A stretch of 63,675 nucleotides of DNA, filler included, from Craspedostauros australis (lineage: Eukaryota): the NCBI GenBank assembly GCA_030167865.1. It is 17 parts of 17 records of this genome, joined end to end, with 100 filler letters (N's around TTAATTAATTAA, not from the genome) between each part and the next. Parts side by side here need not be neighbours in the genome. Positions count along the whole stretch, not along the records: positions 3,399 to 33,860 come from JALAGF010001525.1; 16 more parts are not named here. One strand, 5' to 3'. Shown one piece after another: positions 3,299 to 35,081 of this stretch; position 1 is the stretch's first letter, and the number at the start of each line of letters is the position of its first letter. The position numbers and the translations under genes are program-made. A model generated the notes under the pieces. The model did not search any database. It worked only from the letters and a program-made list of their open reading frames with translations, and was not told the DNA's origin.

Positions 3299-3398
3299 NN
3301 NNNNNNNNNNNNNNNNNNNNNNNNNNNNNNNNNNNNNNNNNNTTAATTAATTAANNNNNNNNNNNNNNNNNNNNNNNNNNNNNNNNNNNNNNNNNNNN
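3299..3398. other. Artificial 100-bp linker N44-TTAATTAATTAA-N44 (first of 16)
   Basis: Identical linkers start at 3299, 33861, 35082, 37414, 38882, 41368, 44576, 46890, 48107, 49668, 50999, 52975, 54122, 55542, 57053 and 61673. TTAATTAATTAA puts stops in all six frames. Confidence 0.97.
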
Positions 3399-10182: not shown

Positions 10183-11364
10183 TTAGTTGGCTGGGCAGAC
10201 GCGCTCGACGATACGTCCGTACAGTGGCTGGACTGGGCGGCTGGTGCTTCCGACTGGTCCGGCGTTGGTGCCTGGTTTGCAAGTGCTGGCATCAATGTAG
10301 CTGACGACGAGGTCGACGAGACGCATGTACTGTGCCGGCGTGACGGCGACGGCAGTGTCGGCCAAGTTCCACCAGACGACCTCGGAGCATGGTGGCGTGG
10401 TGAGTCCACCATCGTAGTGGAAGAACGCTGTGCCCTCCGGAAGGAGGTTGTATGGGGCGAAGATGATGTCGTCCTGCAGCTTGCGTACGGCACCGCCTGG
10501 GGTGTCAACCGGGGTGTCAACTGGGTTGACATTGGCTGGTGGCGCTGGGTTGGCGCAGGCCTGACGGTTGGCCATGTCCTGCTGCTCCCATCCGGTGAGG
10601 AGGACATCGAAGAGGTCGTTTGGCTCGGTGGCATCTGGCTGGATCATCATTCCGATGACGGCGAAACGGTCGCCATCGACCTCACCGTGGACGGTGTGCA
10701 GCTCGGCACCGTAGAAGTTTCCATCGATGGTGTGCTCCGAGGAGGTGTGGATGTGGAACTGGAGGGCCTTGTAGACGCCGTTGATGCCTGGGATGCGCAC
10801 GGTTGGGTTGACGCAGCTGTCATCGCCTGGGAAGGAGGCCTTGACTCCGGTGTTGGTGAGCGAGTAGCTCATGGAGGCGTAGTTGCAGCTTCCATTCTGT
10901 GGGGTTGTGACGGACGTGGATCGCGCATTGGTTGGTTGTTCGAGACGGGCGACGGTGGAATTGGAGTTAGTAAACGAATATGCCACAACGAAAGGAAAAC
11001 ACTCAGAATGCAAATGGAAGAACCATTTCGCAAGCGATAATGCCACATGCATTGCCTGACATCATCTGAACATCTTCGATCAACCGACATCACAGTATCA
11101 GATGTGATTTGAAGGCCTGTGATCTGAGCAGAACAATGCTGAACTCACATCGAAGCGGTAGTTCTCGAAGCGGTCGCACTCGCCCTTGGTGATGGCCACT
11201 GGACTGTTGGACTTGCCGTCGCAGGCATTGTCATCCATCGGGAGCTTGCCCCAGTTCTGTGGGCCGTAGATGGAATCTGGATCGTAAGAGAATGGAGCGC
11301 TGGTTGCGGCTTGGGCGACTGGCACGGAGGCCAGAAGGGCGGCGGCTGCGAGACGGGAGAACAT
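10183..11364 (-). CDS. Alpha-carbonic anhydrase with signal peptide; exons 11364-11149 and 10896-10183 (309 aa)
   Basis: Signal peptide MFSRLAAAALLASVPVAQA; FSY..GPQNW; C.G..NSP; zinc ligands QFHIH..SEH..ELHTVH; YDGGLTTPPCSEVVWW; RPVQPL.GR. Phase-0 GTGAGT...CAG intron at 11148-10897. Confidence 0.95.
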
Positions 11365-16375: not shown

Positions 16376-19300
16376 ATGACAGTAGCAACCCACGGCCCAC
16401 CCACGAAGAGTTGGCCAAGAGGAGGAGGCGACCAAGATGGCGATCATGATCAAGACTGCGCGTTGCCTGTGCACTCCACGACAACAGCACTGTTGGCACC
16501 CAATACCTATACCAATACCAGCAGGGACACCAATAGAGGTACATACAAGGTCGCGCAAGTCTCACAGGGAAGAAGCGAGAAGGCTCGATCCGCGGCCCAA
16601 TCGCAAGGGCAGCATCTTGGCGGGTGGCCACGGTCCAACAGTTCCCATTGCCCAAGACAGACGGCAACCAGAACGTGGAAGACACGCTGTTGGGAAGGTG
16701 CCAAGAAGACGGACTGCTTCTTGCTGCCAACAATAGAAGCGACCATGATCTCCCGAAGCAAGAAACGCATGAAGCAGCTGAAGGGTCGCAGCGGTGGCAA
16801 TCGGGACAAGGCAGGCAGCAAGACAGGCAGCAAGGCGGCCAGCCAACCGCTGAGCGTGAGCGTGGACACAAACGAGGACATCGCAGCCAGGAACGTCAGC
16901 CTGAGCAGCCTCCGCAGCAATGTTGCGCGAGAGGAGCAGCCGTACCACGTCCATCGACACGGGCCGGATGAACAAGAGGATGGCATCGAGGTCATCTCGG
17001 ATCATCCCCTGATCTACTCGGCGCCAACCGTCGATTCATTGGGCGACGAAAGCCTGCTCATTCATCCCCATTACGCGGCCAGGACTCCATCGCGGTTTCA
17101 ACAGATGCAGCATGCATCGTATGGTCTGCAAGCGCAGTCGCCGCAACGGTACGGATCGCAGCATGCGTCTACCACTTCAGCTGCAGCTGCGACTGAGTCT
17201 GAGAAGCCATTGCGCGGTAACGCAAAAGCGTCGCAAGCCACCCATCTCTCGCATCAGAGGAGCACTCCCCTCAGCAAAGGTCTGTCTTCTTCAACTCCGC
17301 CTGATGCCTCGAAATCGTCCTCGTCACTTGCTTCTGCGTCTTCCGCGCCATCCAAGATGTCCAAGTCACACGTCTCAAACGACCAATCTGCGCAGTATCA
17401 ACATCACCAGCATCATCGGCATCAGAATGGCTACGCTCATCATTCGAGCACAGGTACGACTACGACTACGAGCACGAGCACGAGCACGCCAAGTAAATCA
17501 TATCAATCAAGCACCAGCTATAGCACCAGTGCCACCACTTCTCACGGATCCGTATCGCCTTCCACCATCCGACGGGCCAGAGAGGCCGTGCAGCAGCAGA
17601 CGAAACCAAGCACGAGCGCACATCCACATGCCTACTCGCGATCCACGCCGCTGCGTGACCCCATCGACAAGGACTTCTTTCCGGAGGGTGAGCATCGCGA
17701 TTCCAATGCCCTCAGCGTGGCAGTGCGTTCGATTCCCATCTCGGAACGCTCCGCCTTTGCGCAAATGCCGGCACCCAGCATCTCGGAATGGTACCAACAT
17801 GCTCAGTCCGTTGGATCCAAGCGCAAGCTCTCGCCGTCGCTGCAGCATCTTCAGATTCTGCACAAGCTGCAATCCATTTCGCACATCCGTCAGGCGGCGT
17901 TCTCGGTCAGCGGTGCGAGCGACGTCCTCTTTCCAGGCGACGACAGCGATGACGACAGCGACAACGACGACAATGGTTCCAGGAGCAACGCTGTCAACAA
18001 AACCAACGGCATGCGCAATGATACGAAACAGTCCAATCGTCGAAGACGCCGGCGAAGGTATCGCAAGAATGATGGTCGCTACCGATCCATTGACCCCATC
18101 CAAGCCACAAAAGCAGCTCTCCCGCCGGAACCACCCCTGCTCAGCCACAAGAAGTACAGACTGCCCATGCGAGGGGATGTCGGATTTCCCAACACGCCCA
18201 TGGAACAGATCATGCAAAAGCAAACGGAGATCCAGCGTGAGACCCAATGGGAAGAAGCGAGTCCGCGTCTCATCGTCCTCGTCACCTCCGACGACATAGG
18301 CACTGCTGTCGAAGATGATGGTGCCGGATCCGTCGCCAACACGTCCCGCGCGTTGCATCTCGATTGGAACGGCGGCGGTGAAAAGGGCATCCCCTTTGCG
18401 GGCCCCGAATTGCTGCATGCCAAGCAGGCGAGCAAGGAGCTGCTCAAGCGCAATCGAAACAGTGCCTCGGTGGGCGTGACTGCGAGGGTCAGTTCCAGCA
18501 GGAAACTGAAAGATGTATCGATACCCCGGCTGGACTCAAAACTGTCCAGCAAGCAAGCAGAATACACGTGGAAGCAAAGACAGAGCATGTCCGTCCTGGC
18601 CCCTCCCTTGGACGCCACATATTCCAGAACACTGGGCTGGCGACCTCGTCCGTTTCATGATCGGCATCCGGGTATGCGGTACTGGATCTGCTCTCCGCTG
18701 GCTGTCAAATTGGACATCGGGAACATCGAACCGCTCGTTTGTTCGCTCACTCTCTACAGTCTACCTGTGAAGCAGTTCCGACAGCACCAGGCATCGGCAG
18801 CTTGCGCTTCCAACAACGCTGCATCATTCGAGTCATCCCAGCCGCATGGCAAACTGAGCGAACACTTCTGGTTCCCCGCTGGCGACTGGGATGGTAAGAT
18901 CGATCTCAACTCGCTCATGGCACACCGAAACGCAGAGGAGCGCAAGGCCGTGGCTACGGAATGGCGTTCCCGCAACAACAAGGCCGTCTTTTCCAGTCAC
19001 GAGCTGTCCACGCAAAATGGTGACGCCGACTTGCATTGCGTCCTGCAGATATACAAGATGGCACATCCCGATGCTCTGGCTGCCTACAACGCGCCAAAGA
19101 TGCCCGCTGCGACCTCCACGAATGAGCCAACGAACAGCAACAGCAAATCAGGTCTACGCAAACGTTTCACGAAGCGCTTTTCGAACAACGCCAACAAAAG
19201 CACCAACCCCCAGAAGGTCGGTCTTGCTCGCGAGGTTCTGATCGCTCAAACATTGGACAGAGCCAACGCGGTTCTGGAGGAGCACGGTGCACAGTTCTTG

Positions 19301-22300
19301 ACGCCCTTGTGCTTTGGCATTGTCCCTGTTGTGGCCCGGGAGAACGGCTACGATGACCTCCGTCATTCTGAGGATAGCGATGATGAAACCACCACAAACA
19401 CATCAAGGGCAGCAACTGAGTGGCCACATGGACAAACGCAAGAGATGAGTCTGTATGCGTGTTCAGAACGGTCCGAATCAGAACAGGCGTTCTGCGCTAC
19501 CTTAATGAGCATCGTTGCAACCAATGAGTCCCCATCAAATCATGTGACGGGCATGGCGAAATTGCAGCCAAATGGATCCGCCACACGCAGCACCGCATCA
19601 AGCCTTGCCCTTGACACGGTGCGCGAGGACATATCCACCCCATCCACTCCTTCCTCAATCGACGGCGATGTATCCGTCACTTCAAAAGCCTCACCGTCTC
19701 CCAAGAAGAAAGGATTCCGCCGCATGCTGTCACCATCCAGACGCAAACCAAGCAACAAGGAGGCTAGATCGCCGCCACCTCCATCCAAGACCGCCACCTC
19801 CATCACGCCATCGATAGATGACGCAAGTACGACTGCAGTGCAGCAACGTAGAGTGTTGGGTCGGGCGAACGTGTTTTCATCGCGGCTGAATTCTGACTTT
19901 CTGCAAGCGCTCCTCACGGAACCAGCGCAACCGGAGAACTCATCAGAGTCTGGAAAGGTTCGGAAGCTCTTCGTTGATGTCACGGGGGACTCTGCCATCA
20001 TGATGGATCCGCGCAACCAGAGTAGTGACTCTCAGCAACTGTCCATGTCTGACGCCAACTCCGTGAATGCAAGCGGCGGAAAACGATCAAGCCTGGTTCG
20101 TTTGCCTCGTGCGCCAAGACCTTGCGGGTACATCCAGGAATCAATTTTCCGCGAGGTCATGTACCTTCCACCGCGCGCCGCCAAGAGCTATCCTGTGGAC
20201 GTGGGACTGCCGTACCGATCGTTGATCAATCTGCTGTACCTGTACCCCCGACACGTCCGCAACGAAAGCAAGCACCAGCCTGATCCATCCATCAGATACT
20301 GCATTCAGATCGAAATGATTCGAGTCCAGCAGCAGTCTCATCCGCAAGGCGCGGGTTCCAAGACGAAGCAGATGACGCAAGTTTGCAACGCATTTCACAA
20401 TCCATTCTTTTGGACTGGCGATGAGTTGACCACCACGGTGCAGACTCGCTTGCCGCAAGGAATGGAATCCACTGCACAAGAAGGCATCAAGCTACATGAT
20501 GAATTCAAGCTGCGGTTGCCGCAAGTTCTCGATGGGACGTACAGCCTGCGCTTGGCTGTGTTGGAGGTGAAGTTCCAAAACGATGCGCGCCAATCCAGCT
20601 CCGAAATGGGACTTGGCAGCCGCGACACTGATGGGCACGGGTGCGGCGTCGCCTACAAGTGCGTCGCAGAATCCACCATACGGCTGAGCTCCTCATCCGC
20701 GCTCAACGCTTCCGGCGGCGCCAAAATTGCTACCGTCATACCGAATGGAATCCACAGAATCAAGGTTGGGGACTTCTTGCTGCAGCTAGAGACTCGGTTG
20801 GTGTCCAACATCCACACGACAGATCCGGCGTTGGCATCCGCGTTACGCGATTTCCCATCATCTATTGACACCGGCGGCAACGACAAGATGAGAGGCGTGC
20901 TGGCCACGCCATCGCAGCGACCGAACAAGGATGCGTTGCAACGAGACATATCCGCAGATTCGGCCCTCGGTGATGTGCTGTACTCCGTAGTTTTCTCCAC
21001 CGCGATCGGCAGCTCGCTCATGAGTCATTTTCAGCCACTTCTGATGATCCACCTCGCCAATCTCATCAACACCGGACAAGATCTGCCACTGCAAGGCAAC
21101 GCCAATCGATCCTTCCTGATGGAAAATGTACGAAGTCTATTGCAGCTCCTGCAACAAATCAAGCTTCATTTGCTGTCCGAGTTCGGCCACGTGCAAGGGC
21201 AGAAGCAAATTGCGTGGTTTCTGAAAACGAACCTTGACGCCTTCGACGAAGACCATCTGCGCCCGGCAACGGCCAACGACGATGACGCTGACGAGGATCG
21301 TGATTCGGAGTACCTGCAGGTGGAAACGACTCGGTCCGGCTCCGCAACCACGCTGGAATTGTTCGACGATGACGACAATGATGACTTTGACGGTGGCGCG
21401 ATACGAAAACGCAAAAAGAAGGATTCGTTGTTGGGAGACAAGCTGGATCTGCGTATTTCCCGAACCTTCTCTGCCATGGAGGGCACGGGGACGCCTTTCT
21501 CCCGTGTGGCATACGGCGCCACAAAGAACGACAGGATGAGGTTGGAGGCAGAAATGGACATGGAGAACAGCCGATTCACGTACTTGGCCGATGATGATGA
21601 AACTGTGGTGACCATGGCAACCGGCTTCCACAGCACAACGGACATCCAGATGGAAGATGCCAGGGAGGCATTCACGAATCTGGCCTTTATGAACACGCCA
21701 AACAAAGACACGACGACAACGACGACAACGGAGCACGAGGGGAAGAGCAAAGTGCAGAACAAGAACGTCGGCGGCGGCGTGGCTCGTGCGGCAGAACCCG
21801 GCATCGCCACGTCCACGACATTCGCCAACAATGGCGACGCGAACAGCTATTATCCAAGATCGTTGGAGGATCTCGGATTTGGACGCCGAGTGCGATCGGC
21901 GGCCCAAGTCATGCTCGCACCTTGCGTCACGCCGCATCTTTCGGTCGTGCTGTCCGGTCAAACCACGAGTCCGGCGAATCGCAAGCAGACGGCTGGAGGG
22001 TACATGGCAAGCTTTGGATTTGCATCGCCAGATGGTACGAAATCCATCGATGTGGGGGACGATGAAAACAAGACGAGCCTGAACGAAACAGCAAACCGAT
22101 CGCAGCAGCAGTCATACGGTGATAGGCAAACGAAGATTACCACAGGGCTGGAGACCATAGACGAAGGGTATGAAACCGCGGCAGGCACATTCCGAAACTC
22201 GACGCACTGTCCTGTCCTCAACTTTTCAGTCGGATTGTCTGCCGATCTCGTTCCCACCAAGTCAAGGGGCGAGTATCTATACGAATCACTCTTCGTGCTG

Positions 22301-25300
22301 TGGCTTCAGTGCTGGCCTGAAGGCATTGGGTTGGGTGATACCAGCAGTGCAAGTGCTGGAGGCACACGAATGAATGGCGACGACGCCGAACGTCGCAAAG
22401 GAACGAATTCAGCATCCACGTCCACTTCCAAGTCCAAGTCCAACGTAGACCACAACGATGATGGAGCATCTTTCTTCAAACATCTGGATCTTCTGCTCCC
22501 GGTCTGCCTCAAGTCCCTTTGTCTTCGCTACAGCCGAGTTGCGGGACTCAATCACAACCCGCAGGCCCGTGTCATCGGTGATGAGATGCATCTGCAAATA
22601 TTGGGACCATTCGTGGACACCATCGCGCGGCAGCTGGTGTTGGAGACGTTGGGCGAGAACGGTGGTGTTGGCGGGCATGCGAAGGATGACACGAAGGTCC
22701 TGAATTGCTTAAAATGCAGCGACTCCGTGTTGGACTTCCTGATCGGGCTTTGCACGATTCTGCATCCAGCGCAAATGGATATTTTGCTGAACATTTACTT
22801 CAAGGCACTGAGGGATATGGAGACCTCGCATCTGAACACATCCAACGTGGAGTACAGATTCGTGTGGTCGCGAGATACGCTGGAAAGAGTCCGGGGCTCG
22901 AGGCAACTGCGAATCCGCGCCGTCGAACGCCTTGCGGTATTGCCCAACTTTTTGACCTTGAATTATCCATCCCAACTGGAGAAGTTGGAGAGACGGTCGC
23001 GGTCAGTGAATTCCACTTGGAAGATGCAGCGGGTGAATACTGCGACGAAAATATCGACATCCAAGGGATCGACGACTGCGCCGACGCACGACACGCCGGA
23101 CAACGATCCGGAGAACGTCCTCTTGCCCCGCAATGGATGGCTCGCCGAGCTGCTAACGAACGAATGCCTCTCAATCTGCGCATTATCTTGCGAGGCCGTC
23201 GTTGCGGAAGCCATGGCCTATCTCGAAAGTCACGACGCGGACAGCGCCCCCAAAGCAAAGCAGTCCGCGCTGAAGAGGTTACCAGCGGCATCCTTGGAAC
23301 GTTCTGATCTTCTGATGTTCCAGTCCATCGCCATCCATTCCATCACATGCGCCTACGAACTATTGCTGCGTCGGCATGCCATGGATCGGCGGTATCAGAC
23401 AGAGAACTGCCGCAGTCGCATCGCTGCGATCTTCTCGCCCTGCATCTTCGAGCGTTCGCTCGCGAGTGTTCGGTGGTTGGCCAGGATGGAGGCGACGCAC
23501 AAGGTGCGATCGCTATGGCTGCTGTGCTTCGTCTACGTCCTCCAGGAGGCGCCGGAGAGCTTCTTACGGCAGAGTCTCAAAGGTTACTGCGATATATCGG
23601 TACGTATTACTTTTGTCTGGTGGCGTGGTCTTGTTTGATTTGCTGTGACGCGGCAGGGGCGATGCCTTCATGCGTCAATGACTTTTGGCTCTGATTGGTG
23701 GCGATTCGCCGTGATGCCAGCAACAAATGCAACCGATGCATTTCTGCGCCGATGTGTCCATGTTGCATGTTTGTGTTCTAATACCTGCTCTAATTAACGT
23801 GCTCGCCTTCTCTGCCCTCCTCGTCACGCTGCAACTACTTATCGCGGTCTTCCAATCAAACGATGCGCTGCTGCTTTGAAAACACAGAATATTCGGATCC
23901 ATCGATTCATCCGTTTGCTTCGCTTGAGCAGTTCCACTTTTCAAAGCTTCATTGACCAACCCAAGTACACGATGTTTCCTGCGGAGATCGATATCGGCAT
24001 CTCGCCTTGGCTGTTACAAGAATCCTTCAACACGATCTGTGCCACGGCGATCGTCGTGGTCGAGGAATGCAGCATCTTGTCGACCACATCACCGAAGGAG
24101 CAAAAGAAGATGATCCAGGGCATTCTAGATCTCCTGCTCCACATCCTCACGACGCCGCATTCGAGCGTCACGCATCTACGTGCCTTGGGTGCCGCCAGTC
24201 AAGCACTGGACAAGTTCGGAATCGCGCTCTTTGTTGAAATCACTGGAGCATCACTGCAGAACTGGATTCGCATCATTCTCAGTTTGATGAACAGCATCTC
24301 GCTGTCCGTTCGATCCATTGCAGTGGATTTCGTCGTGTCACTGTTCGGGAGCTCCTACGAGTTGCATGGCAACGTCGACGAGCTCTCCATGATCTTCACC
24401 ACGTTGCTGCCAGAGGTGACGGCACGGGAAGTGGGACTGTACGCTATCAACGGCCATGTGAAGGGGCACGGTGAGGTGGAGAAGTCCGTGTGGCCGTTGC
24501 GCCGATCATTCGCGGACGTTGAAGACACGAATCCGTTGGACGACGAACGCGTGGATCCGCAGCTGTCGCCCATCCTGGCAACGTTCTGCCGCGCATGTCA
24601 GGCAATGATTGATGGCGTGCTCATTGAAATGAGATTGCATGGAAGCGACTGCGTGATTGTCGGCACACGCATTGAGTCGCAAGGCACGAAGGATGGGACG
24701 TTCGATGCCGACGAAGAATCTTTGTTCGAAGCCGCGAACTTCTTCATGCCAGAAACGTCACCGCTGCAACGGCTTCGGTGGTTGCACACGCTGAAGACGC
24801 TGCACGAATCAAAAGAGCAATGGGCTGAGGCGGCCGAAACGCTAATGATGTGCGCAAAGACAAGCTCCGATTCCATACCCCACTTGCGCCGCGTGTGGAG
24901 ACCAAGCCGCTTCTCCCTTTGGTCCGACGAAAGGAGATCGCTGTGGTTGACGACCGTGGGGGAAGAGCTGGGTCATCCCGAGCGCGGGAATCAGCAGGTG
25001 ATGAGCTTTGCTGACAACTACTTGGAGCCGTCCGGTCTATTCGGATTCTCGAAGGCGCAGCTACCCACTGGTAAGTTGCCGCAACCGTCTGTGACAGATG
25101 TGTGCTCCATGCTGTCCAACTTTGCGCACGAAGCCGTGATGCTGTACGCGAAGGAAGGTGGCATGAAGGAGCTGGCATACACACGCCTCGAGTCATTGGT
25201 GAAGGTTCTGATTGGCATCCTCGATGATTACAATTCATTCAGCTCCGCGTCGTCCGCTCATGGAATTCACGGATTCGCAGCACGACGCAGGCGTGTCGAA

Positions 25301-26077
25301 GATGAGGCATCCTTGCGCAATGTCATCGCGGCATTGAGTGGCGAGATGGCCAAGTTGGCCGATTCGTTGGTGCTGGGCAGGAGAGATCCGCTGAGTCCGA
25401 AGTCGACCCGGGCGGCAGCAGCAGCATCAAGCCGCGAGCAACACATGGCCATGTTGTCGCAGCGCCCATACTTCGTCCGGTTGTTGCTGAAGGGAAAGAA
25501 GGCGCAGCGATTCCTCGAGAGCACGACGCTTCCCACCTACGCTGCATGGGACGCGCCGTGCATCTGCCGTGTCGTGAAGAGCGTGGTGGAGAGGAGCATT
25601 GCGCTGGCCAACCGCCGGGACAATGATGACTGCTTGTCCGATCTGGAGAAGATAATGTGCACCGAATTCGCGAAACCCATTTTGAAGGCCTTGCGGAGCA
25701 ACGTCGTCGCTGGAGATGGAGCGAATGGTACCAGTACTGGGAATTCCACCGCGAAGAGTGGCTCGCGGGCTGGTGCAGGAGCACCCCCTCCGGTTGTGGT
25801 GCTGAAGGTGGGATCGAGGGAAAGCCCCAAATCCATGCCAGAAGATGACAGCAAGATATACGTTCACGTTTCCTTCGTCCAAAGCACAACGGAAGAAGAC
25901 TGGGGTGAGTCCAGACGCTACCTGTTCCGCGAAGACGATTTCATGCTCGAACCTGCCGTTGCGACGGAAGGCACCATCGCATCCACACTGATCGAATACA
26001 CAGTAGCACAGACATTCCCGTGCCCGTTGTCCCGCCAACGCACCTTGCTGACGAGCGAATTCAAGTCGTTTCGGTGA
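16376..26077 (+). CDS. DOCK (dedicator of cytokinesis) family protein, DOCK-C/D-like; 2 exons (intron 23600-23887)
   Basis: IEPL.CSL.LY / KLSEHFWF; C2/DHR-1 motifs NLLYLYP and DEFKLRLP; DHR-2 lobe A SPLQRLRWL..L...H.....WAEAA; lobe B end TFPCPLSRQ. Phase-0 GTACGT...CAG intron. Start uncertain (16376 or 16746). Confidence 0.85.
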
Positions 26078-26617: not shown

Positions 26618-29026
26618 TCACGCCTCCAGCACGATGGGCTCCTTGTACGTTTTACCGTCGCTGTCCTTCGGTTTCGTGTCTCCCGCAGCGTCTGTCGCCG
26701 TCTGTGCCGCAGCGGCATCGAAGATACGCTGGGCTTCCGAGTTGGCCACCTCCCGAGCAGCATCATCGTCGGATGGTTCGGAGTGCGCGGTGATGTCCAT
26801 GAGAAAATCGAGAATGTCTTCATTGCTGAAGTAACATCCGTGCGCTGTGACAGCAGTGATGTACTCGTTGTCGATGGCTCGCGGTTGGAGTTGGTAGTCG
26901 ATGCGATTTTGTGTGGAACGACCGGCAAGTGGGAAAGCAAGAGGCGGTGGAGCAGGAGCAGCAGTTGATGGACTGTCCTTCTTCTTTGCCGGATCATCAA
27001 GTTCGTTAGCGTGACGATCAATGGCATCGATTACAGTCTTGGCATGTCCACTCACCATGTTCATGAAGTATCCCAAGGAGGCTGTGCTTTCGACGATGGA
27101 TTTTCGAATCTCTTCCACGACTTGTCCCGCCTTAACATGCAACCGCACATCTTGTCCTTGTCTTGTGAGATATAACGGCGGTGGGAGCTTCTCAGTCGGC
27201 GTCTCTTGTGGAAGTAGCAGTGGTTCGATCCGGTACGCCACGGGGTCGCTCGGGTGAAAGATGTTGTACAGCGAGCCGGTTGGCAAAGTGAACGGGGACA
27301 CCGGTATTGGTTTCGGTTGAGGCTTTGGTATATTTGGCACAGCTTTCTTGCTTGCGTACCACGGTGTTGCTGCCATCATTGGTATGGTTGCGATTGCTGT
27401 TTCCTGTTTCTTGGCTGCCGCCGACGATGCACCACTCGCGCCAGCGCTGTCAGCAGTTGCGTTCGCATTTGAACCTGCGTTGCTGTCTATTGCGTTGCCA
27501 TCATCGTCGATCTGTTCGAGTTCTTCGAAGACAGCGTGCGCTCCACGCAGGGTGAGGAACAGACCCACAGGAGATCCGAGAAAGAGGGTGAATTCTGGCA
27601 CGAAGGGCAGGCAATGCTTGAGGGGTTCCGACAGAGACGGTCCCCACGAACCCGCCTGCTGATTCATCCCTTCGTCGGATGAATAGCTGCGATACACAAC
27701 CTCCAAAGCTTCACCGTTCCTCGAGGACTGTATTCCGGACGACGGAAAACCCGAAGCCAGCTTCGATTTCTCCTGCAGGATGGATAGCAGATCCCAGCAA
27801 ATGACGGAGCCGAGGGAGTGGCCGATCAATGCGCATTGGCCTTTCTGGCTGTAGAAATCGGGATGGCATTTCTGGAAGGCAAGGTAGTTCTCATGGATTT
27901 GTTCCGTCACGCACTCTAGGACTTCATGGCAGAAGTTGGGCGTGAGGTACATCAGAACATCAAAGATGCAATCATTGGCGATGGCGCGCATGGCTGGGAT
28001 GGTATGCAACGTCGTGGCCCGCACCGACCTCATCAGCGAGCTGGATGACGAGTGGATGCGATCGTACCACTGGATGGGGATGAATTCGGTTCGCGTCGGT
28101 GGCGGGGGCAACCGCTGCTGCTTCCTGCGCGCCATGTCGCATTTCTTCTTCCATTCTTGCACCTGCTTTCTGTACATGTCACGTCTCATCCCGTTGACCT
28201 CATCCATCGACGACCTCACGTGCACAGTGTTCTTGGTCCACAGCGCTTCGCCGATGCCGTGAACGACGAAGATGACGTTGCGCACTGGGCCGAGAAGTAA
28301 CTCGTCTTCTTCTCCAGCCACGTGGTAGACACCGTAGCCACGCTGCAGGGTGTACGTTTTGCCGAACCATCCCTTGGCACACTTCTGCAGGACGAGGTTG
28401 CCATCCGATTTGGCAATCCGCATGCAGAAGTTGGGATCCTCCATGCTGATCTCCTCCTTGAGCAAATCGTCGATGCCGTCACCGAACGACGCCGCGTTTG
28501 CCACAGCACGTCTATAGAGATGCTCCGCCTTGCTTTCGTCCAGGTTCGACAACGGCACCAGCTTGGGCTTCTTTGGATTGCCGTCCACGGGATCCTCCCG
28601 CACGTACCAAACTGCCGAGGTGAGCCGCTTGTGGGGGCATCGATAGAAGTTGAATTGGATGACATTATTGACCGGATCAGCCGTTGCGCGGGAGCCTTCC
28701 ACCAAGCACTTCTTGTGGGGGTTCTTGTTCAGCGCCTGGCAATCGACGCGGCGCAGCGGCATCCAGACGTCGTCCTGCGCTTTGTGATTGCGCTGGTTCT
28801 TCGTACTGTCCTTGTCCTTGTCATTGTGATTGTCATTGCTGCTGCTTCCTTCGGTGGCGACCCCATTGTCAGCCTGCGCTTGTGTTTGTGCTTGTGCTTG
28901 TTCTGGCTGTTGCTCTCGCGTCTGTGCCTGCTGACGGGCGTCGGTGCTCGCATTGCTTGCGTCCTGCCACAGCCACACGCGCAAGGGTTCGGGTGAAGCG
29001 TCTTCGATGGCGATCCAGTTCGGCAT
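26618..29026 (-). CDS. DDHD-domain phospholipase A1 (PA-PLA1/SEC23IP family)
   Basis: VIFVVHGIG, GHSLG lipase motif, FLGSPVGLFL, NIFHPSDPVAYRIEP, RIDY and TAHGCYF; single exon of 802 aa. Confidence 0.93.
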   Translation of the reverse strand: MPNWIAIEDASPEPLRVWLWQDASNASTDARQQAQTREQQPEQAQAQTQAQADNGVATEGSSSNDNHNDKDKDSTKNQRNHKAQDDVWMPLRRVDCQALNKNPHKKCLVEGSRATADPVNNVIQFNFYRCPHKRLTSAVWYVREDPVDGNPKKPKLVPLSNLDESKAEHLYRRAVANAASFGDGIDDLLKEEISMEDPNFCMRIAKSDGNLVLQKCAKGWFGKTYTLQRGYGVYHVAGEEDELLLGPVRNVIFVVHGIGEALWTKNTVHVRSSMDEVNGMRRDMYRKQVQEWKKKCDMARRKQQRLPPPPTRTEFIPIQWYDRIHSSSSSLMRSVRATTLHTIPAMRAIANDCIFDVLMYLTPNFCHEVLECVTEQIHENYLAFQKCHPDFYSQKGQCALIGHSLGSVICWDLLSILQEKSKLASGFPSSGIQSSRNGEALEVVYRSYSSDEGMNQQAGSWGPSLSEPLKHCLPFVPEFTLFLGSPVGLFLTLRGAHAVFEELEQIDDDGNAIDSNAGSNANATADSAGASGASSAAAKKQETAIATIPMMAATPWYASKKAVPNIPKPQPKPIPVSPFTLPTGSLYNIFHPSDPVAYRIEPLLLPQETPTEKLPPPLYLTRQGQDVRLHVKAGQVVEEIRKSIVESTASLGYFMNMVSGHAKTVIDAIDRHANELDDPAKKKDSPSTAAPAPPPLAFPLAGRSTQNRIDYQLQPRAIDNEYITAVTAHGCYFSNEDILDFLMDITAHSEPSDDDAAREVANSEAQRIFDAAAAQTATDAAGDTKPKDSDGKTYKEPIVLEA

Positions 29027-30125: not shown

Positions 30126-33100
30126 ATGCGCGACGACGACCGTAACCAAACAGCCGAAGACAATACCGGCGATGGCGCAACAACTGCATCCAACAAATCC
30201 AATGGCAATGGTGAGGACTCTCCTGCGCCAGACATCACAGATGATGTCGAAGCCGGCATCGTCGAGCCACTTTCATTGCCTCCGTCGCAGGCACCAACGA
30301 CATTGATCTCGTCTGACGGCAACAACACTGCTGTTATCAGCGAGCACGATGTCATCCATAAATCTCTCACAAGCAGCTCTTTCATCGACCACATCAAGTT
30401 TGTCGTCGGACTCAAGTCCGACACCGTCTTCTCCACTTGGTACAACGAGAAAGGAAAGGCAATAAACAACTACACCTTCCAGCAGCTCTGGGATGAAGCA
30501 GGGCACTGCGCCCATCTCCTCCGCAACAAATGGGGAGTCAACAGAGGTGACCGCGTGGTCCTATGTTACGACTTCGGTCTGCACTTCTTCGCCATCTTCC
30601 TGGGATGCCTCCGTGCAGGCGTGACGGCCGTGTTGGTCTACCCTCCCGGACCGCCGCTGGTCAAGTCGCTCACCAAGATGAACAAGGTGATCGAGGATTG
30701 CGCTCCGTCACTCATCCTCACCCAAACATCCATCAATCTCCTTCGAGCCGCCGATCGCGCCAACCCAACATCCAAGAGCCGCTCCATGTGGCCAAGCGGG
30801 GTCAAGTACCAAGTCACCGATCGCATCATTCGCCATGATGGCTTCATCACGGACAAGACCAACGGCAAGAACAAGCGAGCCAAGAAAGGCTTCCTTTCCA
30901 GCCTCATCTCTGGCCGTTCATCATCGTCGCCGCCTTCATTCGATGAACCCAACATCGTAGGATCGGATCTGGCGTTCCTCCAGTACACATCCGGGAGCAC
31001 CGGCAACCCCAAGGGTGTGATGGTGACGCATGCCGCACTGAGAGCTAACATCGAACTTCTCCATGGTGGTTGGTTGGATTGCTTTGAAAATGACTTGGGT
31101 GATAGAGGCAAAATACCAAAGCGAATCACGGCATGCTCATGGCTACCGCAGTACCATGACATGGGTCTGATCCAGATGGNCATTGCGCCTTTGTCCGGTG
31201 CCTTCCGTCTCCATATGATGTCGCCCGTCTCATTTATCAGCAACCCGCTGCTGTGGATTGATCTGATCTCGCGACACAAGTGCCACATGAGCGCTGCGCC
31301 AGACTTTGCGTACCGTCTTGCAACACGCAAGTTCAACGAGGCGAAGAGCAAGCAGACTGGAAAAGGTCATCCCATCCCGAACCTCGACCTATCCAACGTG
31401 TATCATCTGCAAAACGCGGCCGAACCAACACGGCTGGACACAGAAAAGCACTTCTCTGACGCATTCTGCCCATACGGCCTGCGCGAGGAATGGTTTGTGG
31501 CTGGGTATGGTCTTGCAGAGAATGTGGTTGGCGTGAGTTTCAAGCATGGATTTCATGTTTCTACCATCCGCGAAGGTGAAGATCTGCATCCATCTGTGGC
31601 AATTGCACACCGCAATACTCTACACCAATCGATTGACATCATCATTGTGGACCCGGACACCTGCGTGCAACGTCCAGAAAATACCACTGGAGAGATCTGG
31701 ATCGCCGGGGCCTCTGTCGCAGCCGGATACTACAATCAAGCCCAGTTCACCGCCGACGAATTTCATGCGAAGCTGCAAGATCCTCCATCCGATGGCAATG
31801 GCAATGGCGATGGCGAGAATGCCGCTGACGGTGACAGCAATGGAGGCCGCCCTTCAACCAAGACGTACTTGCGAACGGGAGACTACGGATTCTACCAAGA
31901 TGATCATCTCTTCATTTGCGGACGCAAGAAGGACATCATCATCGTCAATGGTGTGAACTACTACCCGCAAGACATCGAGCACGCCGTCCAAGATGCATCA
32001 TCTTCCGTCCGTCCAGGCTGCGTCGCTGCGTTCTCGTCCGATGAATCAGGCAACGATGGACAGCTCGAGATCGTCTTTGAGATCCGATCCAACCATACAG
32101 ACGATGCCGCAACAATCTGTCAGGAGATCAGAAAGGCCGTGATGGAGCACATCGGATTGGCGCCTGTTACAATCGCAGCCGTCAAGGAACGCACCATCTC
32201 CAAAACAACAAGCGGCAAGATCCAGAGACGCCGCAACCGACAACGTTTGCATGACGGAGACCAGAAAATGATCTTGAACTTCAGCGCAAACCCAAATTCA
32301 ACCGCCCAAGTTGCACTGGATGGCGATGCCAAGACATCACCAACCGAAACCATGTCGGCGAGGAACGCAGACCAAGACGAGGACCTCCAAAGTAAGACGT
32401 TCAATGAGATCATCGCGAACGCAACGGGATCGCAAGTCAAGGGAGATGAAACATGGGAGGACGTTGGATTGTCATCCATGGGGGAACTGGAGCTCCGGCA
32501 ATCACTGTCAAAACGGTACAGCACCACCCTCCCCCCGAATTGCTTCGACATGTTCTCAACCCTCATGGATCTCGAAACATTCCTTGAGACATCGCACGGA
32601 GAACCACTCCCAACGCGTCTCCCAATGCTCAAGAGACTTACCACCATACGCAACGAGAAAAGGCTCTCCCAAACAACATCCACCGTCATCCAGATCATCG
32701 GCGTGCTCATCATCCTCTTCATGTTCGCTTTGCCCATCATTCCTGCCTACGGAATCGGCAAAGTCCTGGCCAACGACAATCGCACCCGCGTCGTCTTCTT
32801 CATCGATTCTTCGGCATTCATCTGGATGTGCTACCCGCTGGTGATCCCATTCTGGATGATCATGCTCACGCTGGAGGTCATCCTGTCGAAGTGGATCATC
32901 ATTGGCAGGTACCAAGAGGGATACACCAACCTCGCGTACTCCTGCTTTCTTCGATGGTGGTTCGTGGACCGACTGATGCACATGTGGGAAAACTTCGTCG
33001 GGCGCTTCATCGTGGGCACACCATTGATGACAGCATTCTGCTACCTCATGGGAGCAGATGTCCATCGTTCGTGCAACATCGATTCCTTCATTCGGGAGTT

Positions 33101-33860
33101 CGATCTGGCGAAAGTCGATGCCAGCGCCTTGGTGAGCAAACCGATCCGTTGCCGAATGTTCGGGCCATGGAAAGATGAACAAGGTCCCAGCTTGCGGTTC
33201 CGCAAGATCCTGGTGGGATCGAATGCCACGATCAAGGGCATTCTCATTCCGGGCGTCAAGGTCGGTTCCAACTGCTACGTGCAGCACGTTTCTGTCCTGG
33301 CGGAGGGTGCCCAAGCACCGCCCAACACCGTCATCCGAGGCAATCCTGGATATGTCGAAAGCGCGGCACCTGCAGCGGCAGAAGCGACAACGTCACAAGG
33401 CAGCAACATTATCAGCATTGACGGCAGCGACGATCCGCATCAAACAGGTGCGAGCACAGCCGCAGACGTAGACGGAAACGTAACGCCAAACAACAACGAT
33501 ACCAGATGGGCTATCCTGGGTGGCATGAAGATGACATGGCTGCTCGTCGAGCTGTACATGACCTTCTGCTGCTTCCTCATTTCCGATATCTTGGTCCGAG
33601 ATGACCTCCGAGACTGGAGATACTCCAAACTGCAATATTGGGTTGTATCCATCGGTCTGTCATCAGTGCTGCTGGTGATATCCAGCATCCTACTCAAGTG
33701 GGTGATGATCGGCAAGAAGAGACCGGGCAAAGCGAGCACCGGTATCTGGAGTGAATTCGCAGACTGGGCATGCGACTATCACTTCGACCGAGCATGCTTG
33801 ATACTCTATGGTCTGACCACCAATTCGATCATTTGGAACCTGGTCCACATGGCTCATGGA
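30126..33860 (+). CDS. NRPS-like protein: fatty acyl-AMP ligase + carrier protein + poly-epsilon-lysine-synthetase-like membrane/LbH region; 3' end cut by a gap
   Basis: FLQYTSGSTGNPKGV, SWLPQYHDMGLI, YGLAE, YLRTGD and KTTSGKIQR (FAAL); VGLSSMG carrier-protein motif; TM pairs followed by KW.IIGRY..G...FLRWW.VDRL and hexapeptide-like IKGILIPGVKVGSNCYV, with the unit starting again at KWVMIGK. Confidence 0.88.
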
Positions 33861-33962
33861 NNNNNNNNNNNNNNNNNNNNNNNNNNNNNNNNNNNNNNNN
33901 NNNNTTAATTAATTAANNNNNNNNNNNNNNNNNNNNNNNNNNNNNNNNNNNNNNNNNNNNCA

Positions 33963-35081
33963 TTGTCAACGCCTGGAAAGAAGTCATCGGGACCTGGACA
34001 AGGACAAGGAGGTGAGTCTGGGACCTGGAGAAACTGCCCATCCGAACTCCTTGGAAATGTCCTCGTCATCCAAGAAGGAGCCAAGTCATGCCCCGATGAC
34101 ACTGGAGCGGGTGGATGGATCACGTTTGACTTCAACGATGCCATCGCTGGAGATGTGCAATTCACATACGCCAAGCTTCTTGACTCTGACGACGGTAACG
34201 CACCAAAGATCAGGGTCTGGAAGACCGGTGAAGATGTGACCAAAGACCCTCGCACCAATGAGTACGACACGGCCCTGGCAGGAAACAACGGGCTGTGGTC
34301 GGACTCCTTCGACCAAGATGAAAACCAGAAGACCATGTATTCCGACCTTCAACGAATCCAATTTGAGTACTTCGGATCTGGATCCATCGCTGAGATCCGA
34401 TTCAAGCCTTCGAAGTGCCCACCCACCCTCAGCGGTATCAGCGACAGCGACAGCGATGATGGAAGCAGCAACGGAAGCAGCAGCGATGATGGTAACAGCA
34501 ACGGCAGCAACGGAAGCAACAGCGATGATGGTAACAGCAACGGCAGCAATGGAAGCAATGGAAGCAACGGCAGTAATGGTAGCAACGGCAGTAATGGTAG
34601 CAACGGTAGCAATGGAAGCAACGCTAGCAACGGAAGCAACAGCGATGATGGTAACAGCAACGGAAGCAATGGAAGCAACGGAAGCAACGGAAGCAATGGC
34701 AGCAATGGAAGCAACAGCGATGATGGTAACAGCAACGGAAGCAACGGAAGCAATGGAAGCAACGGAAGCAACAGCGATGATGGTAACAGCAATGGAAGCA
34801 ATGCTAGCAACGGCAGCACCGGCAGCAACGGCAGCAATGGAAGCAACGGAAGCAACAGCGATGATGGTAACAGCAACGGAAGCAACGCTAGCAATGGAAG
34901 CAACGCTAGCAACGGCAGCAATGGAAGCAACGGCAGCAACGGCAGCAACGCTAGCAACGGCAGCAACGCTAGCAACGGCAGCAACGCTAGCAACGGCAGC
35001 AACGCTAGCAACGGCAGCAACGGCAGCAATGGAAGCAATGGAAGCAACGGAAGCAACAGCGATGATGGTAACAGCAACGGA
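33963..35081 (+). CDS. Partial extracellular-type protein: globular domain followed by a long (S-N-G/A)n tandem repeat
   Basis: Open across the whole contig. GNVLVIQE..PDD..GGWITFDF..GSGSIAEI domain, then AGCAA(C/T)GG(A/C) 9-bp repeats punctuated by NSDDGN. Confidence 0.6.

Follow-up and report, generated by a model that had tools for sequence, protein, structure and literature searches.

We analysed a 63,675-nucleotide stretch of DNA from Craspedostauros australis (1–63675, hereafter the window) for the gene at 30126..33860, the product of which would join a fatty acyl-AMP ligase (FAAL)-type adenylation (A) domain and a carrier domain to a membrane module related to that of the Pls/PosA synthetases. 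The open reading frame (ORF) begins with an ATG and runs on the plus strand through 1245 sense codons without interruption, as seen in the ORF listing and the translation, with a single ambiguous base at 31180 that causes codon 352 to be read as X. From 33861 the frame is cut off by an assembly gap (N44-TTAATTAATTAA-N44), and the apparent stop at 33908 falls inside this artificial linker. The domain order is FAAL, carrier, a first pair of transmembrane (TM) helices (TM1-2), a soluble unit (C1), a second pair (TM3-4) and the start of a second soluble unit (C2), with TM5-6 and a third unit (C3) lying beyond the contig end.

Reading frame and domain organization

Three full-length relatives each aligned with the window in tblastn as one collinear segment, starting at 30336 or 30381 and ending at 33860 with 40–47% identity, so that no intron is needed to account for the gene. 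The alignment of P0002 covered aa 29–1173 of its 1534 residues at 47% identity, while P0004 aligned as far as aa 1083 of 1420 and P0007 as far as aa 1076 of 1438. Judged from these relatives, the missing 3′ part amounts to approximately 340–360 codons, corresponding to the remainder of C2, TM5-6 and C3 with its conserved histidine, and the 1245 codons represent about 78% of an expected ~1,590–1,600 aa. A tblastn search with the relatives did not find the missing piece on the other contigs of the window. The preliminary description of this DNA had reported at least 1245 aa without an intron; both the length and the absence of introns held, with the correction that the contig end truncates the gene. 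The diatom-like origin that it had proposed agrees with the closest named relatives, which belong to Seminavis robusta and Chaetoceros tenuissimus, and with the eukaryotic character of the neighbouring genes. The gene is thus genuine, eukaryotic (diatom-type) and intronless, and its 3′ end is lost at the contig end.

The contig that carries the gene spans 3399–33860, and the gene runs off its 3′ end. The window as a whole is a chain of 17 contigs joined by linkers of the form given above, 16 in number (at 3343, 33905, 35126, 37458, 38926, 41412, 44620, 46934, 48151, 49712, 51043, 53019, 54166, 55586, 57097 and 61717), and the pieces past 33860 are only about 1–4.5 kb long; adjacency across the linkers therefore carries no meaning. 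A search for public sequencing runs that contain this DNA listed one, X1, with 0.06 of the sampled words, and none identified as RNA. Two 113-base contigs from X1 align with the final 30 bases of the contig that carries the gene (33831–33860) and extend 83 bases past its end. In all, four small contigs of this run were placed on the gene, covering 33548–33860, and a 313-base contig over the same interval differs from the window at six positions. Sequence across the gap is therefore present in public reads of a near-identical organism.

Table 1 Features of the FAAL-type gene and of the gap that follows it. Positions are those of the window; aa, amino acids; LbH, left-handed beta-helix; pLDDT, predicted local distance difference test.
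Feature	Position	Strand	Basis
ORF, 1245 codons, 3′ end missing	30126..33860	+	Translation; tblastn with P0002
Acidic low-complexity N-terminal extension, ~85 aa	30126..30380	+	Relatives align from about aa 86
FAAL-type adenylation domain, N- and C-terminal subdomains	30462..32237	+	PF00501, PF23024, NCBIfam, PDB relatives
Ambiguous base N in codon 352	31180	.	Sequence
Carrier (thiolation) domain, Ser784 at 32475–32477 in GLSSM	32409..32585	+	PF00550 (sub-threshold), motif, alignment, model
TM helix pair 1 (TM1 ~aa 855–880, TM2 ~aa 896–925)	32688..32900	+	Hydropathy; long helices in AlphaFold2 model
Soluble unit C1: two helices and LbH, with KW..IGRY, RWWFVDRL and REFDL	32913..33395	+	Best TIGR02353 stretch; model
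Low-complexity linker, C1 to TM3	33396..33527	+	Translation; pLDDT <50
TM helix pair 2 (TM3 aa 1138–1158, TM4 aa 1169–1197)	33537..33716	+	Hydropathy; model
Start of C2, LKWVMIGKK and FADWACDYHF, cut by contig end	33717..33860	+	tblastn; relatives ~340–360 aa longer
Assembly gap and linker N44-TTAATTAATTAA-N44	33861..33960	.	Sequence; DNA beyond is another contig, perhaps not adjacent

The N-terminal extension is not conserved in the relatives, and hydropathy analysis found no hydrophobic signal peptide within it, the first hydrophobic segment lying not before aa 144. Downstream of this extension, Pfam identified the AMP-binding domain PF00501 at aa 113–536 (E 2.7e-56) and the DIP2-like AMP C-domain PF23024 at aa 602–704 (E 6.9e-8), and the core adenylation motifs are all present (YTSGSTGNPKG, YGLAE, TGD, GRKKD and KTTSGK). 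The best NCBIfam models were those of FAALs, namely PRK05850 (285.8 bits), FadD32 (275.7), PRK12476 (270.6) and PRK09192 (270.3), with FAAL profiles spanning 250–286 bits on the window protein. In contrast, the best ordinary acyl-CoA ligase model, that for the long-chain enzymes (PRK06187), reached only 116.5 bits and the amino-acid adenylation model TIGR01733 reached 122.2 bits against a cutoff of 317.4. The complete FAAL that had been claimed at this position was thus recovered, with FAAL models outscoring those of both other classes by more than 130 bits. A sequence search of the PDB gave a matching picture in that all 16 solved chains found at E≤1e-30 were FAALs or FAAL-like loading domains, including the Legionella FAAL 3kxw (the best match, 4.3e-72), 7r7e-g, FadD32, FadD23, FadD28, E. 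coli 3pbk and McyG. Outside the family described below, the closest relatives are the loading domains of FAAL-polyketide synthase (PKS) and FAAL-nonribosomal peptide synthetase (NRPS) proteins. Profiles, motifs and structural relatives place the adenylation domain in the FAAL clade, and it looks competent.

Compared with five amino-acid A domains, the window protein contains about 13 additional residues past YGLAE, as well as additional residues past APDFAY. The first of these sites lies where the FAAL-specific insertion is placed in the accessible text of PMC8460268, although the added stretch is short. A further argument, that the domain is devoid of the Asp that binds the alpha-amino group, was dropped when MAFFT placed the D of YHDMGL on the FD of motif A4.

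The carrier domain is recognisable from its GLSSM motif at aa 781–785, in which Ser784 is the expected site of phosphopantetheine attachment; the serine had been predicted at about 32475, and its codon starts exactly there. Among 91 FAAL-type relatives, 74 have the motif G-x-[STD]-S-[LMIVFA] at the equivalent position and most of the other 17 retain the serine within a variant motif, and the GLSSM region aligns with the GGHSL carrier motif of Pls-type proteins in a profile alignment. PF00550 is found in the precomputed annotations of several relatives and scores 30.9–69.7 bits in those scanned with Pfam. In the AlphaFold2 model described below, the carrier segment is helical with a pLDDT of 84–92.

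C-terminal to the carrier, the window protein matches TIGR02353 over aa 781–1245 in two stretches (E 6.3e-17, 61.2 bits with this segment scanned alone), a score that lies below the curated cutoff of 423.1 bits. Its motifs SKWIIIGRY (aa 921–929), FLRWWFVDRL (941–950), IREFDL (989–994) and LLKWVMIGKK (1189–1198) accompany the two helix pairs of Table 1, so that hydropathy, motifs and the AlphaFold2 model bear out the alternation of TM pairs with KW..IG, RWW..DRL and LbH-like units noted previously. The window takes in two of the three expected TM pairs, along with about 1.2 LbH units out of three; three TM pairs are found in full-length relatives and also in the bona fide Pls-type protein P0036, which scores 580.7 bits on TIGR02353. 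Of the 37 columns conserved to 80% or more across the FAAL-type clade, the window protein deviates at only two, Y938 and C972, and keeps the other 35. Pfam hexapeptide models were not significant on the window protein (PF24894, E 0.079; PF14602, E 0.12; PF00132, E 1.3), and PF00132 does match some of its relatives. Within C1, a Cys-Arg-x-Phe sequence (CRMF at aa 1009–1012, nt 33150–33161) sits on the predicted beta-helix; the Arg and Phe are conserved in 94% and 83% of the FAAL-type family, respectively, whereas Pls-type proteins have no conserved residue at those columns.

A FAAL-type family beside Pls/PosA

The Pls/PosA group includes epsilon-poly-L-lysine synthetase and delta-poly-L-ornithine synthetase, and the original description of Pls is reportedly that of Yamanaka and colleagues in 2008. 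In these proteins, as in the complete relatives of the window protein, an adenylation domain and a carrier are followed by a module of ~650–730 residues in which three TM pairs alternate with three LbH units. To compare the two groups, profiles of 46 family sequences (alignment A1) and of 22 Pls-type sequences (A2) were aligned by hhalign, which gave a probability of 100 and an E-value of 2.9e-68 over 785 columns extending from the carrier through the end of C3. Homology along the whole module is accompanied by shared KW..GR, RWW..R and GTP motifs and by a shared histidine in C3. This histidine is invariant in the 22 Pls-type proteins, where it forms part of Q-T-H-L-F-E-D-R, aligns with a G-H dipeptide in the family, and is kept in 92 of the 95 family members with a complete C3 in a MAFFT alignment.

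The two groups are nevertheless distinct. The A domain of the family is of the FAAL type and not of the type that adenylates amino acids (diamino acids), as the TIGR01733 score of the window protein indicates. Complete family modules score only 57.9–79.5 bits on TIGR02353, apart from P0110 with 206.8 bits, whereas Pls-type controls score 485.7–656 bits, and both C2 and parts of C3 have diverged motifs relative to the Pls-type proteins. The C-terminal layout typical of Pls and TIGR02353 that had been claimed for the window protein is therefore sound as a statement of homology, and a TIGR02353 match is present. It does not amount to membership, since scores fall far below the curated cutoff in complete relatives as well as in the fragment. 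These low scores of complete members, together with the separate clade described next, place the family by its sequences as a sister group of Pls/PosA rather than a member of it.

To define the family, an exhaustive HMMER search was carried out with aa 821–1245 and returned 745 cluster representatives with E≤1e-3, of which 318 reached ≤1e-10 and 71 reached ≤1e-30. The A domains of 180 collected proteins were classified by comparing their score against the window FAAL domain with that against the amino-acid A domain of P0036, which yielded 90 FAAL-type proteins, 19 amino-acid-type proteins and 71, mostly fragments, with no A domain. In a FastTree phylogeny of the region from TM1 to the start of C2 (144 sequences, three of them bacterial), the 87 FAAL-type sequences all fell into one clade with a support of 100, and none of the 22 amino-acid-type sequences lay inside it; 29 fragments were placed within the clade and six outside. 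P0002 was the nearest neighbour of the window protein. The module was also present in 26 of 91 further proteins retrieved with the FAAL domain, and a search of proteins of 2019–5000 aa with alignment A1 gave one relevant protein, P0185.

All named members of the family are eukaryotic protists or algae, unlike Pls/PosA, which is found in bacteria or fungi. Diatoms are represented by about two dozen Seminavis robusta proteins, two Chaetoceros tenuissimus proteins and one MMETSP diatom transcript. Other named members come from the brown algae Ectocarpus and Scytosiphon, the pelagophyte Chrysophaeum taylorii, the choanoflagellate Salpingoeca kvevrii and a Picozoa single-cell genome. In the ESM Atlas, the query lay nearest to uncharacterised, mostly eukaryotic clusters, among which Bacillariophyta was the commonest phylum. 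Genome contigs were additionally scanned with alignment A3 as a single peptide pattern, which constitutes weak evidence on prokaryotes, and the bacterial proteins with the module had amino-acid A domains at all three loci found in this way and in the one protein from genome G142. Among 401 genomes of the phylum of G001, a true C-module match occurred in two (G001, the source of locus L001, and G142), both with amino-acid A domains. The pattern scan and the 401 genomes, all from a single phylum, together make up a narrow prokaryote search, and this search yielded no FAAL-type form. Taken from these searches, the family is large and apparently eukaryotic, with a FAAL in place of the amino-acid adenylation domain. 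In diatoms, such proteins now carry the automatic annotations 'FadD21' or 'D-alanyl carrier protein ligase'.

The predicted structures are consistent with this relationship. An AlphaFold2 model of the complete module of P0006 (695 residues, alignment A1) had a mean pLDDT of 88.1 and a predicted template modelling score (pTM) of 0.87, and a model of aa 745–1245 of the window protein (501 residues, alignment A4) had a mean pLDDT of 87.8 and a pTM of 0.82. The latter contains a small helical carrier, long helix pairs and a beta-strand-rich unit, and only its low-complexity linker (model residues 344–374) falls under a pLDDT of 50. Foldseek searches of the PDB matched LbH acetyltransferases, gamma-carbonic anhydrases and serine acetyltransferases (best E 6e-5 and 1e-4), each match spanning a single LbH unit. 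VIA-align, run against 48,161 representative chains, gave a Z-score of 12.4 to the maltose O-acetyltransferase 3srt (root mean square deviation 3.5, 153 residues) from the region of P0006 equivalent to C1 of the window protein, followed by Z 12.3 to 3ect, Z 10–11 to the sugar N-acyl/acetyltransferases QdtC, AntD, PglB and WlbB, and Z 7.4–7.6 to LpxD and LpxA. According to these models, the soluble units have the LbH fold. Neither Foldseek nor VIA-align found a solved chain spanning the whole module, an absence that is no proof of a new fold, and the C module of P0002 was unmatched in a sequence search of solved structures.

The predicted fold of the soluble units thus resembles that of trimeric LbH acyl- and acetyltransferases such as the maltose/galactoside O-acetyltransferases, the sugar N-acyltransferases and LpxA/LpxD. 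LpxA and LpxD take an acyl-carrier thioester as donor. Unlike these enzymes, the family has three non-identical LbH units in one chain, interleaved with TM pairs and with the donor carrier in cis, and no Pfam hexapeptide model is significant on the window protein (E 0.079–1.3). The alternation of helix pairs with beta-strand-rich units in the P0006 model is as predicted for PosA, for which the accessible text of PMC10522769 describes three beta-helices packed like a trimeric sugar-nucleotide acyltransferase atop six membrane helices, with no experimental structure.

Proposed reaction and alternative explanations

Based on these features, we propose that the protein is a single-module, NRPS-like membrane enzyme in which a fatty acid is adenylated, loaded onto the carrier and transferred singly, at the membrane, by the LbH module to an acceptor, a reading that we consider probable without being confident of it. 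The FAAL domain would adenylate a fatty acid in its free form, or a comparable carboxylic acid without an amino group, and the acyl group would pass to a phosphopantetheine arm attached at Ser784 of the carrier in the same protein. The C-terminal module, which in complete relatives would form a pseudo-trimer of three left-handed beta-helices on six membrane helices, would then off-load the carrier-bound acyl group, at or within the membrane, onto an acceptor with a hydroxyl or amine, with the conserved histidine of C3 probably serving as general base. The soluble domains probably all occupy one side of the membrane, the cytosolic one, because the TM helices are paired and have basic flanks and the N terminus lacks a signal peptide. 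The preliminary description had suggested acyl transfer or polymerisation at the membrane, and the same reading is reached here, on homology only.

The domain composition of the relatives points to the same type of cargo. A Pfam scan for extra domains in 14 long family members identified, in P0022, P0016, P0152, P0067 and P0044 at least, a flavin amine-oxidase/DAO-type (desaturase-like) domain separating the FAAL from the carrier; in addition, P0044 ends in an alpha/beta hydrolase and P0016 in a peroxiredoxin. The domain order in P0167 is FAAL-carrier-ketosynthase-carrier-C module, which is the arrangement expected of an enzyme whose FAAL loads a fatty-acyl starter and whose Pls-like module off-loads terminally. 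The relatives with a FAAL-carrier-ketosynthase arrangement or a flavin domain thus seem to favour an acyl over an aminoacyl cargo.

The fusion of the carrier in cis is consistent with an enzyme that passes acyl-AMP to a holo-carrier and rejects CoA. The FAALs that load PKS and NRPS carriers, such as FadD32, 3KXW and the FAAL-acyl carrier protein (ACP) didomains, provide the best profile and structure-database matches and share the adenylation motifs, and the fusion of FAAL to carrier in the window protein resembles the FAAL-ACP loading didomains covered in the accessible text of PMC8460268. They differ in that a membrane-embedded LbH module, and no ketosynthase or condensation domain, follows in the window protein, as well as in its scores below the curated cutoffs and its short FAAL-specific insertion. 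The DIP2/CPS1 proteins of fungi and animals likewise represent eukaryotic FAAL-like domains outside classical PKS and NRPS, and the DIP2-like AMP C-domain of Pfam matches the window protein; however, DIP2 consists of a DMAP1-binding domain and two tandem FAAL-like domains with neither carrier nor membrane LbH module, as far as the same text describes it (PMC8460268).

Several observations weigh against the proposed single transfer of a fatty acid. Every FAAL profile score lies far under its NCBI curated cutoff (285.8 against 775 bits for the best), the models being those of full-length bacterial subfamilies, and the extra stretch past YGLAE, at ~13 residues, is shorter than in 3KXW or in the relative P0093. 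The PF00550 match at aa 762–820, although in the right place for the carrier domain that had been described, scores 17.5 bits and remains below the gathering cutoff of 20.8. C3 with its putative catalytic histidine lies beyond the contig end, and the gene is seen intact only over its first 1245 codons. The separate FAAL-type clade was recovered from sequences picked by similarity to the query, in which the deep diversity of Pls-type proteins is under-sampled. Finally, those relatives of the C module that have been characterised are all iterative polymerases, and homology alone would favour polymerisation.

This last point leads to the principal alternative, an iterative polymer synthetase like Pls/PosA in which the monomer loaded by the FAAL is bifunctional, a hydroxy- or amino-fatty acid for instance, and is joined by the C module into a polyester or polyamide that is extruded through the membrane. 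The full-length homology between the C module and its polymerising counterpart in Pls/PosA, the retention of the C3 histidine and of six TM helices, and the fact that the characterised proteins with this module are all polymerases in the accessible text of PMC10522769 speak for such an enzyme. However, the complete members score 58–80 bits on TIGR02353 (cutoff 423) compared with 486–656 bits for bacterial Pls-type proteins, their C2 and C3 motifs have diverged and they form a clade of their own, while the in-line ketosynthase of P0167 suggests terminal off-loading of an acyl group and evidence for a bifunctional substrate was not found in this analysis. We therefore regard polymerisation as unlikely, if worth serious attention. 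Single transfer is favoured because a plain fatty acid offers no nucleophile with which a chain could be extended and because C2 and C3 diverge strongly from those of the polymerases in a family that includes a ketosynthase-containing relative. The product need not be a polymer.

A second alternative is that the A domain is FAAL-like by descent only and activates another carboxylic acid (amino, keto or aromatic), giving a non-lipid product. It would accommodate the scores under the curated cutoffs, the short insertion, the auto-annotation of a divergent Seminavis subgroup as D-alanyl carrier protein ligase, and the amino-acid-oxidase-like flavin domain of some relatives. Similar fusions are known from plants, in which FAAL-like domains occur joined to HemY, catalase or amino-acid-oxidase domains, according to the accessible text of PMC8460268. 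Nevertheless, the lead of more than 130 bits that FAAL models hold over amino-acid adenylation and aryl/acyl-CoA ligase models, and the identity of the nearest solved structures and non-family relatives as fatty-acid loading domains of PKS and NRPS, make a change of substrate class improbable in our view. That the frame represents a pseudogene, a chimera of the assembly or contamination from bacteria, as its position against a contig end in a string of small contigs and its intronless structure might suggest, is highly improbable, given that it is collinear with its relatives over FAAL, carrier and C module at 40–47% identity with conserved residues kept, that the same 30-kb contig bears eukaryotic alpha-carbonic anhydrase, DHR-2/DOCK-like and DDHD genes, and that the closest named relatives are diatoms while the bacterial module proteins examined have amino-acid A domains (3/3 and 1/1).

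Judged by domain architecture, the replacement of the amino-acid adenylation domain by a FAAL ahead of a Pls/PosA-like module is a new variant and represents a large unstudied family. Within the accessible text of PMC10522769, the Pls/PosA membrane module is so far restricted to polymerases of diamino acids and lacks an experimental structure. Its coupling to a fatty-acid-type loading domain defines a large separate clade that includes ecologically dominant algae, which would imply that the module is a general carrier-dependent device for acyl transfer or off-loading at membranes, beyond the lysine polymerase. It would also point to unrecognised lipid or lipopolymer products in diatoms, brown algae, pelagophytes, a choanoflagellate and Picozoa. 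Diatoms are reported to be the richest in FAALs among eukaryotes, with 2.9 per genome and 16 in Seminavis robusta (PMC12820801, accessible text), and the family accounts for much of this high count. For Bacillariophyta, the accessible part of that article mentions only 'FAAL-PKS', and the word 'lysine' is absent from its main text (PMC12820801); the words transmembrane, hexapeptide and diatom are absent from the accessible text of PMC8460268. Targeted literature searches, with subscription journals outside their coverage and supplements excluded, found no paper linking a FAAL to a Pls-like module, which agrees with the earlier statement that no characterised product is known for this architecture in diatoms. 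A bolder reading, which we hold to be quite unlikely, is that the family constitutes a eukaryotic membrane synthase-exporter of an unrecognised class of extracellular or membrane lipid, namely a polyester or polyamide of functionalised fatty acids, or N- or O-acylated small molecules or wall polymers. If so, the many paralogues of benthic diatoms would encode a diversified lipid chemistry for surface biology or signalling.

Neighbouring genes

On its contig the FAAL-type gene is paired with a DDHD-domain gene (PF02862, E 1.4e-28) of 802 codons at 26618–29026 on the minus strand, which is divergent from the FAAL-type gene and has its start codon about 1.1 kb from that of the latter. DDHD is a domain of phospholipase A1-type enzymes. 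This lipid-related neighbour could, as a speculation, be functionally linked to the FAAL-type gene through the supply of free fatty acid.

Further upstream, a 2420-codon ORF without a Pfam match occupies 16376–23638 (+) and is followed downstream by a 701-codon ORF at 23972–26077 (+) that matches DHR-2 lobe A (E 1.8e-6); with an intron between them, the two may be parts of a single, very large DOCK-like gene. The ORF at 10183–11052 (−) has an alpha-carbonic anhydrase domain of eukaryotic type (PF00194, E 2.1e-24). On a separate small contig, the frame at 33963–35081 (+) is open and cut at both contig ends, and it encodes an N-terminal part of ~150 residues, after which come over 200 residues of Ser/Asn/Gly repeats (SNGSNG..., with SDDGNSNG in between).

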